Shown in pieces: positions 21,676-26,002 of a stretch of 64,000 nucleotides of DNA (positions are counted from its first letter, which is position 1; each line of letters starts with the position of its first letter). The translations under genes and the position numbers were made by a program. The DNA is from Octopus vulgaris (taxonomy: Eukaryota): the NCBI GenBank assembly GCA_951406725.2, contig OX597839.1:17670001-17734000 (forward strand). The letters are read 5' to 3'. A model generated the notes under the pieces. The model did no database searches. It saw only the letters and a list, made by a program, of their open reading frames with translations, and was not told the DNA's origin.

Positions 21676-23278
21676 TGCATATATATTAATAATATATTAT
21701 AGTGCACTTTCCAGAGCTCCTCTGCAGGTGTTGGATACCAAATGTTATCATACAATAGGATGTACATGTGAAAATCATCAAATATCCATTGAGTATAAAC
21801 AAATTTTAATACAAGAAGATAGATTGAACTGGCTTTATTACAAATTACTATATTTGTTTCAACGCATCATCATCAATTTTGTATTAATATAATTCAACAA
21901 CAACTGCATACATGCATATCCTTGCTTGACCTGGTGATAAGTTACGAAATTTTTAGCAGCAGATTCACTAAGCTACCAAGAATTTCACCCCAAGTCCTGC
22001 ATACAAAGTTCCATTATTGGCAATAGAACATTTATTGCTTCATTACGAAGGCCTGAAATATACCATTAAGTTAATAGAAAGTTTGTAACCTAAGGAGGCC
22101 AGTGTTAACTTGCAATAGCAAAAATCAATGAATATAAAGTTCAGAAGATTGCAAAATGTATTTGTCATGAGGCTGTCTCTAGCCCTTCACTTGTAAATGA
22201 CGTAAACCTGAAAAAAACCTGAAGTTGAGGAATATATTTAGAGAGCAGAATGAAAGCCAAACATATACAATACATACATATATATATATATAGAGAGAGA
22301 GAGAGCGAGAGAAATATATATACACACATGATGCAAATATGGCTGTGTGGTAAACAAGTTTGCTTCCCAACCACATGATTTTGATTTCAGTCCCACTGTC
22401 TGACACTTTGCCCTGAGCAAACCAAAGTTTAGTGAGTGGATTTGGTAAACAAAAACTGAAAGAAGCTCATCGTATGTATGTATGTATGTATGCATGTATG
22501 CATGCATGCATGCATTCATGTACGTACATACGTAAGAATGTATGAATGAATGAATTAGAAGTAGCTTAAGTGTTGTAAACAACATCAAACATACATACAC
22601 ATTGTATCTGCTTTGCTAGTTTGTCCGTCAGCTGTGATTCAGTGTATTGGAGATGTCTCTCTCAAAGCGGCAGGTGTTAAGAGACCTGAAGGTCAGTCGT
22701 GGACAGGTGAGACAACTCACTCTAAATCCTATTTAAAAGTGATGGGGCATCGATGTTTTGTCATTTTTCTAACTTATCAACATCACATACCCAAACCAAA
22801 CCCAAGGCAAATTGAATAGCCTATCCATGATTATACATAAAATGGTATAAAGACCATCTGCTGGTATGCCTGAATAGTGCATATGTAGGAATAACACATA
22901 CATAGGAACAATGCATACATAGGAATTCCCAAAACATAACTGACTGGTGAACTAACAAATCACATACATAAAGTGTGTGATTGATATATGTGTATGTTTG
23001 AATAACATGAATGTCATAAATTTCCAATATTCTGTGGAAACATACCTAACCTTGGGGAAATATTAGCTTGTTTAGAAATAGGTAAGGGTTGGTGACAGGT
23101 AGAGCATTTGTCTCAATATACTTTGTACAACATGTATGTGCGTGTGTGTATATATATATATATATTAATAATATTACTTTTAATATATATTCAAAATAAT
23201 ATAAATTAATTAATTTTATGTATTGGCTTATGTTTTTCATTGTTTGATTTGCCTAATAGTTGTTTTATCTCTAATTTA

Positions 23279-23320
<42 letters not shown>

Positions 23321-23324
<4 letters not shown>

Positions 23325-23615
23325 ATGACCGACCAGACCATCAGATGTTGTTACACATCGCTGGCCACAATGCGTTCGCATTGTTTTAGCTTTCGAATGA
23401 TGCCACCCCGCTGGCTAAGCGAGCAGGCCAACAGAAGAAAGAGTGAGAGAAAGAGTGGTGAAAGAGTACAGCAGGGATCACCACCCCCTGCCGGAGCCTC
23501 GTGGAGCTTTTAAGTGTTTTCGCTCAATAAACACACACAACGCCCAGTCTGGGAATCGAAACCGCGATCCTGCGACCACGAGTCCACTGCCCTAACCACT
23601 AGGTCATTGCTCCTC

Positions 23616-23617
<2 letters not shown>
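23321..23617 (-). mobile_element. tRNA-derived SINE (family D), complete head
   Basis: Reverse-complement head tgacctagtggttagggcagtggactc..ggtttcgattccc carries A and B boxes. Confidence 0.88.
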
Positions 23618-23668
<51 letters not shown>

Positions 23669-23723
23669 CGGAGATGTACTTGCATAGCGAGTGACTTGAT
23701 CTGAGATCGTGTGCTGGAATGAA

Positions 23724-24011
23724 AACAATTGTAGCGTGGAAGGTGTTTATAAGCCATTTAAGAAACACACAAAACCGTTAGATTCACTTCAACATTTAAA
23801 TTTAATTTGTCAAAATATTTTCGTCACTATGAGACTATGACCTGTTCACTCACAAAGCTTCGTGATGCAGCATGAAGCTTTGTGAGTGAACAGGTCGTGG
23901 TCTCAAAGTGACGAAAATATTTTGACAAATTAAATTTAAATGTTGAAGTGAATCTAACGGTTTTGTGTGTTTCTTAAATGGCTTATAAACACCTTCCACG
24001 CTGCAATTGTT
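23724..24011. repeat. ~140-bp-arm near-perfect hairpin in (TA)n carrying two opposed HHR-like motifs
   Basis: Arms pair with few mismatches around the centre at ~23867. Confidence 0.95.
23879..23929 (+). ncRNA. Hammerhead-like motif with compensatory G3-C8 core (GUGAACA); mirror copy at 23806-23856 (-)
   Basis: TTTGTGA GTGAACA g GTCGT-ggtctcaaa-GTGAC GAAA ATAT TT TGACAAA; helix I 6/7 bp, palindromic helix III AATATT, UUU triplet. Confidence 0.65.
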
Positions 24012-24559
24012 ATATATATATACATGTATGTATATATATATTATCATCATCTGAAAGTCCACCCGTTCATGCTTCCGTGGGATTTACACACACATATATA
24101 CATGTACCCCCTCTTTAGTGAGACATCTGCTTCTGTCTCTCTGTCTCTCTCTAACCATTTATTATCTGACACAAGATCACCTCTTCCAATGACCCCACCT
24201 CTCTCAAAATTCCTCGTCTTGCAAAATTACTTGGTAACCCTGCCAGTGCTGGCATCCAGTCCACACTGTGAAGTGGTTGATATTTGGAAGGGCATCCAGC
24301 TGTAAAAACCATGCCAAAACAGACCTTGCCTGTGCTAGTGTCATGTAAAAAGCACACAGGGTGGATTGGTGTTAGGATGGGCATCCAGCTGTAAAAACCA
24401 TGCCAAAACAGACACTGAAGCCTGGTATAGTCTTCTACCTGACCAGCCTGTCAGGCCATCCAACTGATGTCAACATGGAAGAAGGACATTAAATGATGAT
24501 AATGATGATGATAATGATGATGATATATATATATACTCACACACACATTTCACAAATCT

Positions 24560-25342
24560 ACTGAGGACATGTGTAAGCTTGCAAGGGATGAAGCCAGTAT
24601 TCTCCACTGGATGTGTAATGTCAGTGTGCATACACAACAGTGTAAGCACATTGAGAGAAAGGTTGGACTTAAGAAGCATCAGATGTGGTGTGCAAGAGAT
24701 ACAACTGCACTGGTATGGTCATGTGTTGCGAATGGATGAGGACAGGTATGTGAAAAAGTGTTGCACCCTAGCAGTTGAGGGAATCTGTGGAAGAGGTAGA
24801 CCCAGGAAGACCTGGGATGAGGTGGTGAAGCACAACCTTCGCACATTGGGCCTCACTGAGGCAATGACAAGTGACCAAGACCTTTGGAGATATGCTGTGC
24901 TTGAGAAGACCTGGCAAGCCAAGTGAGACCATAACCATGGCTTATGCCAGTGCTACATAACCAGCCCATTTAAGAGTATCCTTCAATCATTGGATAATAA
25001 ACTATGCTTGCAAGTGAAATCATTGTCATGGCCAATGACAGTACCGCCTGATTGGCACCCGTGCCAGTGGAATGTTAAAAGCACCATTCGAGCATGGTCG
25101 TTGCCAGTGCCGTCAGACTGGCTCCAGTGCAAGTGGTGCATAAAAAGCACCATTTGAGCATGCTTGATGCCAGTACCACCTGACTGGCCCTTGTGCCGGT
25201 GGCACGTAAAAGCACACAATACACTCTTGTAGTGGTTGGCGTTGAAGAGCATCCAGCTTTAGAAAATTTGCCTTCTGGCTCACCAGCTTTCATTCAAACC
25301 GTCCAACCCATACCAGCATGGAAAGTGGACGTTAAATGATGT
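24560..25342 (+). mobile_element. RTE-X-type LINE 3' end: ORF C-terminus plus family B 3'UTR
   Basis: ORF 24579-24926 contains QLHWYGHVLRMDEDRYVKKC..GRGRPRKTWDEVVK, followed by UTR with ~65-bp subrepeats and a gttaaatgat tail. Confidence 0.9.
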
Positions 25343-25732
25343 TGCCTATACATGTGTGTATGTATTTATGTGTATATGTGTGACTGCAGGCATGTATGCA
25401 TGTATAGCAGGATCTCTGAAGACCATATACAGTTTCCAGGGTTTATATAAGTTCTACCTAGTTTTCTTTCAATGACAATTAGACAATATCAGGTTATGAA
25501 TGAAAAAAGAAAAGAAAATCCAATGAAGAAATTTGTTTCAGTTGTTTACTGATTTGATGTTATATATAGTTGATATCTAGTTTATATTTATGTATGCATT
25601 TGTGTATGTATGTTTAAAAGGGGAGGTGAGAATATATGTAGCCAGTTGGTTAGTCACTATTGTTGCTATCAGAAATGGGTGTTAACCAATATGTCAGCAG
25701 TCGATAACAGTTTCTGGTGAATTGGTTACATT

Positions 25733-26002
25733 CAACAACAACAACACCTACTACTACAACAACAACAACAACAACAACAACTACTACTACTACCACTACC
25801 ACTACCAATAATAATAATGATGATGACGATGATGATGTTGGTTTCTTTCATAATACCACTATTATTATTACTATTACTACCACTATTGTCACTGCTACTA
25901 CTTCTACTACTACTACTATTATACTACCACTACCACCACCGCCACCACCACCACCACTATTACTACTGCAGTAACAACAGCAACAATAACAACAACAACA
26001 AT
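25733..26002. repeat. Compound trinucleotide microsatellite (ACA/ACT/ACC/ATG)
   Basis: Low-complexity array; explains the poly-T and poly-P ORFs. Confidence 0.9.

Follow-up and report, generated by a model that had tools for sequence, protein, structure and literature searches.

A natural G3-C8 hammerhead motif family in an abundant octopus Penelope-like element, likely a compensatory swap of the core 3-8 pair

Results

An inverted Penelope-like element insertion

The window analysed here is a 64,000-nucleotide stretch of the Octopus vulgaris genome (GCA_951406725.2, contig OX597839.1, forward-strand positions 17,670,001 to 17,734,000), and all coordinates without a locus label are positions within it. 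At 23724..24011 it contains a 288-bp hairpin made of two inverted-repeat arms of 144 nt each (23724-23867 and 23868-24011), which are complementary at 138 of 144 positions and differ at 6 sites (minimum free energy -235.4 kcal/mol, z -34.6). A hammerhead-like motif is read on the + strand and mirrored on the - strand, as the original prediction of a ~290-bp hairpin had described. Beyond the hairpin, the left arm extends to 23666 through a one-sided tail of 58 bp. Both ends of the resulting 346-bp insertion adjoin (TA)n, and its end points are the same two points where matching copies stop. The features are:

23666..24011, no strand assigned: whole insertion, a two-armed (inverted) Penelope-like element (PLE) stub of family A, judged from its arms, the shared copy ends and the full-length relative L103
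23666..23867, - strand: long arm, with leader, hammerhead, 5′ UTR and the first 30 codons of the PLE frame, then the tail
23868..24011, + strand: short arm, an inverted copy lacking the tail that starts at the putative transcription start region (GATG, 23864-23867)
23666..23723, - strand: 58-bp one-sided tail between two fixed 3′ ends, putatively two reverse transcriptase (RT) start sites (meaning taken from the available part of PMC11167929)
23978..24011, + strand (mirror start 23757, - strand): first codons (ATG GCT TAT...) of the PLE RT-endonuclease frame, judged from the L104 frame, which begins MAYKHLPRC, and from continuity in L103
23879..23929, + strand: minimal type I hammerhead motif, G3 at 23886, C8 at 23891, predicted cut after 23922
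23806..23856, - strand: mirror hammerhead motif, G3 at 23849, predicted cut after 23813
23884, + strand (23851 in the mirror arm): private C-to-G change in helix I, creating a G-G mismatch with 23924

The parent element is visible in longer copies. L103 has the arrangement pLTR-ORF-pLTR, with two direct repeats of ~1.1 kb around an RT/GIY-YIG frame and one hammerhead motif per repeat (at 1542 and 5803, 4.26 kb apart). In L106 we observe a 998-aa open frame with a C-terminal GIY-YIG domain (E 1.6e-5, above the Pfam cut-off). Pfam RVT_1 has no match to this frame; its assignment as an RT is based on a YVDD motif, on 133 homologues including ones named as RT-containing, with Octopus vulgaris and a sea cucumber represented, and on a match to an RVT_1-positive PLE of the same genome (BLASTP E 4e-9). 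We found direct pLTRs, an inverted short copy, a one-sided tail and a microsatellite target lacking a clear target site duplication, all traits of EN+ PLEs, and the inverted 5′-truncated arm, one-sided tail and (TA)n target form a known PLE insertion pattern (PMC8557442, from the text available). The locus is recognisable by these characters as a two-armed stub of an abundant PLE of the EN+ type. Two other identities were rejected: Naiad, since the endonuclease is C-terminal, and a retrozyme, since the stub represents one end of a coding element and copies start elsewhere than at the cut. A search of viral contigs found no relative.

The hairpin lies outside the ribozyme proper and is the usual inverted PLE insertion. 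The two motifs of the window lie on opposite strands, so no dimer is possible within one RNA, and RNA read across the hairpin is predicted to fold into a 141-bp duplex that buries them both. With these features and a damaged helix I, the window copy is by all sequence indications inert.

Several other repeats neighbour the insertion. Directly to its left, at 23322-23607, is a GC-richer repeat of ~290 bp within (TA)n; similar sequence also flanks L104, so it is probably another dispersed element. Copies of a common octopus SINE-like repeat with 66-bp subrepeats lie at 24240-24500 and 24930-25340, next to the end of an RTE-like LINE (about 24560-24800).

The hammerhead motif and its G3-C8 core

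The + strand motif has the layout of a minimal hammerhead. Helix I is formed by 23879-23885 and 23923-23929 and helix II by 23894-23898 and 23908-23912, followed by GAAA at 23913-23916 and N17 at 23922. An extra G (23893) stands between positions 9 and 10.1, the G10.1-C11.1 pair is G23894-C23912, and helix III is reduced to the 6-nt palindrome AAUAUU (23916-23921). A pattern search returned two matches in the window and none in 100 shuffles, and no Rfam hammerhead model matched at E<=10 within 22000-26000. Minimum free energy folding of the motif formed helices I and II and neither helix III nor a dimer form. The sequence allows dimer pairing; cofolding returned an alternative intermolecular structure that lacked helix III.

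On both strands the core reads GUGAACA, differing from CUGANGA at positions 3 and 8 just as originally noted. Both arms also carry a UUU cleavage triplet and the G-G mismatch in helix I, and these two features fared differently from the core. The mismatch is indeed common to the arms, where it was presumably copied from one molecule or later homogenised, but it is not a family feature: a G of this type occurs in 14 genome matches, two of which are this locus, versus 6,088 with the pairing C. It is private decay of this locus. The UUU triplet had been called unusual, and yet it is present in 13 of the 41 metagenome motifs beside related RTs that are described below (from highly redundant contigs).

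A DNA search of the octopus genome gave 2,117 candidates, 40 of which were scored. Using a pattern in which positions 3, 7 and 8 were left free, we found 6,088 matches, compared with none for the reversed control. Among the first 100 of these, 95 have G3 and C8 together and 92 read GTGAACA; the family helix I, TTTGTCA/TGACAAA, is perfectly paired. The expected family with a fixed GTGAACA core and this helix I is therefore real, and the literal C3 U G A N G8 A9 core is absent as the family norm. C3 occurs in only 20 matches genome-wide, 19 of which still have C8, and 334 matches combine G3 with a letter other than C at position 8. For four runs whose labels are organisms B, C and D, the contigs list no core difference at 5% or more. 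G3-C8 is a genuine natural trait of the motif family, very common in this genome. It was also correctly anticipated that CUGANGA searches would miss the family, its core lying outside that descriptor and Rfam giving no hammerhead match here; thousands of motifs in a single genome go undetected by CUGANGA descriptors and by Rfam.

We then asked how constant the motif is within family A, using 143 of 190 copies after dropping the 47 that had been picked for G8 or C3. U4 G5 A6, A9, G12 A13 A14, A15.1-U16.1 and H17 each keep their majority letter in at least 135 of the 143. Variants at the level of subfamilies affect 1 of 38 motif positions versus 13 of 75 loop and flank positions (p=0.03), a comparison among related copies that is biased towards conservation because part of the set had been selected by patterns in which motif letters were fixed. 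The sole variable motif position is an A-to-G change opposite U in helix I, giving a U-G wobble. Subfamilies that differ by about 17% still share all core letters besides the 3-8 pair, the G10.1-C11.1 pair and the palindromic helix III.

At position 8, G stands in 34 of the first 100 non-C8 copies listed, and G3.G8 copies make up about 1.9% of family A versus a background C>G rate of 0.53%, which makes them ~3.5 times commoner. Such copies would be expected to be inactive, and their excess speaks against strong constraint on the core. The 34 fetched copies (L265-L298) are spread over subfamilies and found in all older ones. We rejected G3.G8 as a basal evolutionary intermediate, since these copies are scattered and have no diagnostic site in the shared element body; the excess could stem from minor source elements, from a mutation hotspot or from conversion by CUGAAGA families.

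Two unusual arrangements of family A were also observed. Head-to-tail arrays of 170-190-bp stubs, each with its motif on one strand, are present at L114:4100-5470 and L112:3800-4500 and could form dimers if transcribed. The copy L247 (G000:C2:15126197) is missing precisely the part of the ribozyme enclosed by the two helix I strands.

Sister families and covariation of the 3-8 pair

Sister family B, 54% identical to family A in amino-acid sequence, carries a C3-G8 motif at the homologous place before the start codon and in the same frame (G-GTC...GAC-GAAA). A C3+G8 pattern in that frame gives 5,819 genome matches versus 158 for the control. The C3-G8 matches include CTGAAGA and CTGATGA families, and L152 and L155 share the GTCA/TGAC helix I with family A. 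In an alignment of 11 sequences, which are related and were hand-picked, 93% of cells are paired, compared with 22-46% in controls with the strands slid, and both sides have changed in 5 of the 12 pairs; because the sequences are related, the shuffle count is not a probability. Eight of these sequences have CG at the 3-8 pair and three have GC, so that all 11 are paired there; A15.1-U16.1 is likewise present in all 11. Helices I and II covary, and helix III is a 6-nt palindrome only.

Related RTs at 76 metagenome loci yielded the 41 motifs mentioned above, again from highly redundant contigs: 26 with C3-G8, 14 with U3-A8 and one weak GC candidate. The last (L172) was taken as chance, lying 4 kb from its own RT match and having weak helices. 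In a 14-row protein tree, A groups with B (88/100), and the clade that encloses them has C3-G8 and U3-A8 members. This nesting suggests that G3-C8 is derived in A, and the homologous sister motifs (CUGAAGA versus GUGAACA), together with the covarying helices, point to a compensatory swap. The natural covariant family that had been proposed is consistent with the G3-C8 of A against the C3-G8 of its sisters, and from these comparisons G3-C8 is likely a compensatory swap of the core 3-8 pair.

The clade shows other core changes as well. Family B1 (L122:1737-1794, G000:C9), which is young, high-copy and has an intact 1,308-aa ORF, reads CUGAUGC, that is, A9C. Among 100 family B matches listed, about two thirds carry the A9C change; A9 itself is found in older B copies. 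The metagenome relative L160 combines U3-A8 with C9. Since A9C is present in the youngest sister subfamily, cores in the clade may be under weak constraint.

We also observed, by eye, an apparent U15.1-A16.1 instead of A-U in a C3-G8 motif of another metagenome relative (L159:4973-5015, 44% aa identity). A second, distant octopus PLE family (L087:4383, L095:3611, L076-L083) has a U3-A8 hammerhead lacking the extra nucleotide and 781-aa RT/GIY-YIG frames, many of them intact.

Copy ends and the putative transcription start

Most copies run through the predicted cut site: about 88 do so among the first 100 of 2,469 matches anchored at the 3′ side, scored by eye. Two of the 3′-anchored copies stop exactly at the cut; these were dismissed as inversion joints, explained by the 7-nt complementarity of helix I. 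Among the about 87 copies that could be scored by eye in the first 100 of 200 matches picked for short 5′ ends, there was no clear spike of 5′ ends at the cut, with 3 exact ends, 14 from the cut to +2, and ~3 per position over 29 positions.

Further upstream, the leader is recognisable in 120 of 194 copies. Of these, 36 continue upstream, 41 begin at AGATG, and 43 begin one or two bases later. An extra G precedes AGATG in 30 of the 41, at a position that is C or T in the element (p about 1e-10 versus 25%). An untemplated 5′ G in RT products is a copy of the cap. The extra G therefore suggests a transcription start 24 nt upstream of G3 and templates that were capped and uncut; by the pattern of copy ends, this likely PLE transcription start lies at an initiator-like TCAG. 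A branch-point-like word and CAG stand before the leader. An intron ending at that point was not supported, as the context of the putative donor varies and no ends cluster, and a transcription start with a cap-derived G explains the 5′ ends better.

Discussion

On balance we think it probable that the window holds a dead stub of a PLE with a fixed G3-C8 minimal hammerhead, and that the core is likely a compensatory swap keeping a slow, dimer- or protein-dependent predicted self-cleavage in the source elements. RNA started in the upstream pseudo-LTR would contain two motifs, which could pair via their AAUAUU palindromes into a double hammerhead. Aided by the PLE protein, this would be cut slowly after U17, with G3-C8 retaining the tertiary pair. 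RNA started in a downstream or solo pseudo-LTR would contain one motif and stay uncut, and such RNA may be the template from which thousands of 205-bp stubs arose, some having an inverted second arm and others lacking it, and the window copy being among them. Two fixed sites would serve the PLE protein as starting points for cDNA, which would yield a long arm with the tail and an inverted short arm.

It is possible, rather than probable, that the motif descends from a hammerhead and no longer cuts, G3-C8 being kept as a structure bound by the PLE protein or lying close to the start, or having hitch-hiked in a successful source element. The mostly uncut templates, the excess of G3.G8 copies and the A9C cores of the young sister subfamily and L160 agree with such a loss, as does the report that PLE hammerhead mutants do not lower insertion in vitro (PMC11167929, in the part available). 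However, in a dead motif nothing would explain why two transversions brought back precisely the 3-8 Watson-Crick pair, which is important in the active fold, and across the diverged subfamilies the remaining core, G10.1-C11.1 and the palindromic helix III have persisted.

That the hairpin locus is itself an active covariant ribozyme unit, with a functional G-G mismatch and UUU, is very unlikely: both arms do share the mismatch and have intact cores, but the mismatch is in 14 matches against 6,088, the arms have drifted at 6 sites, and the opposite-strand motifs would be buried in the read-through duplex and could not form a dimer in one RNA. A chance likeness, in which a MITE-like palindrome contains an accidental hammerhead-like word, fits the absent Rfam match and is highly improbable, since the motif belongs to an RT/GIY-YIG element and occupies the place at which sister families have canonical hammerheads.

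With the inverted pair of family A, the proof of the hammerhead tertiary 3-8 pair by natural covariation would be complete. PLE families with G3-C8, C3-G8, A9C and U3-A8 coexist in one genome with intact ORFs, so that the role of PLE hammerheads and the relevance of cleavage can be tested side by side. As a speculative extension, to which we give limited credence, the clade could represent a natural scan of the core in which G3-C8, U3-A8, A9C and U15.1-A16.1 were amplified through a chaperoning PLE protein. G3-C8 would then be active in attenuated form, cutting only in full-length two-motif RNA, and an entire set of such variants would have escaped descriptor searches, perhaps including some in PLEs believed to lack hammerheads. 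Lunse et al. 2017 reportedly describe about 150,000 PLE variants.

Comparison with known systems

The closest structural relatives are the minimal hammerheads (min-HHR) of metazoan PLEs, for which the available text describes natural motifs with C3-G8 and U3-A8 only (PMC4209133, Cervera and De la Pena 2014). Like these, family A has a type I motif in the pLTR, the extra nucleotide between 9 and 10.1, G10.1-C11.1, a short palindromic helix III, and thousands of mostly solo copies with some opposite-strand pairs. It differs in its G3-C8 core, a longer helix I (7-8 bp) and a helix II of 5 bp. Natural U3-A8 hammerheads have been published (Perreault 2011, PMC3088659; a Schistosoma PLE variant, PMC4209133) and are likewise natural cases in which the tertiary 3-8 pair changed in a compensatory way. 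However, U3-A8 keeps the pyrimidine-purine order and requires two transitions, passable through U-G, whereas G3-C8 inverts the pair and requires two transversions.

Insertions of EN+ PLEs (Craig 2021, PMC8557442) share with the octopus element the inverted arm, one-sided tail, (TA)n target and RT with a C-terminal GIY-YIG; the octopus tail is 58 bp, compared with 30-40 in theirs. G3-C8 is known as a laboratory variant (PMC3884650), and a natural G3-C8 was not found in the hammerhead and PLE literature covered in part here (including PMC6765202 and PMC11014351), so that an earlier report is possible.

A further comparison is with the Poseidon PLE of the anole (Frangieh 2024, PMC11167929). There, a single C3G or G8C change kills the hammerhead and the double C3G/G8C change partly rescues it, the ribozyme needs the PLE protein, uncut RNA is the main template, and the tail marks two RT start sites. 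The octopus element has the same swap, a one-sided tail and AT-rich targets, and its copy ends likewise point to uncut templates. The ORF starts inside the motif in the anole element and 56 nt after the predicted cut in family A. The swap was a laboratory control in the anole element, whereas here it is the wild type of a high-copy family, and the family A motif is likely a natural form of this known laboratory rescue mutant.
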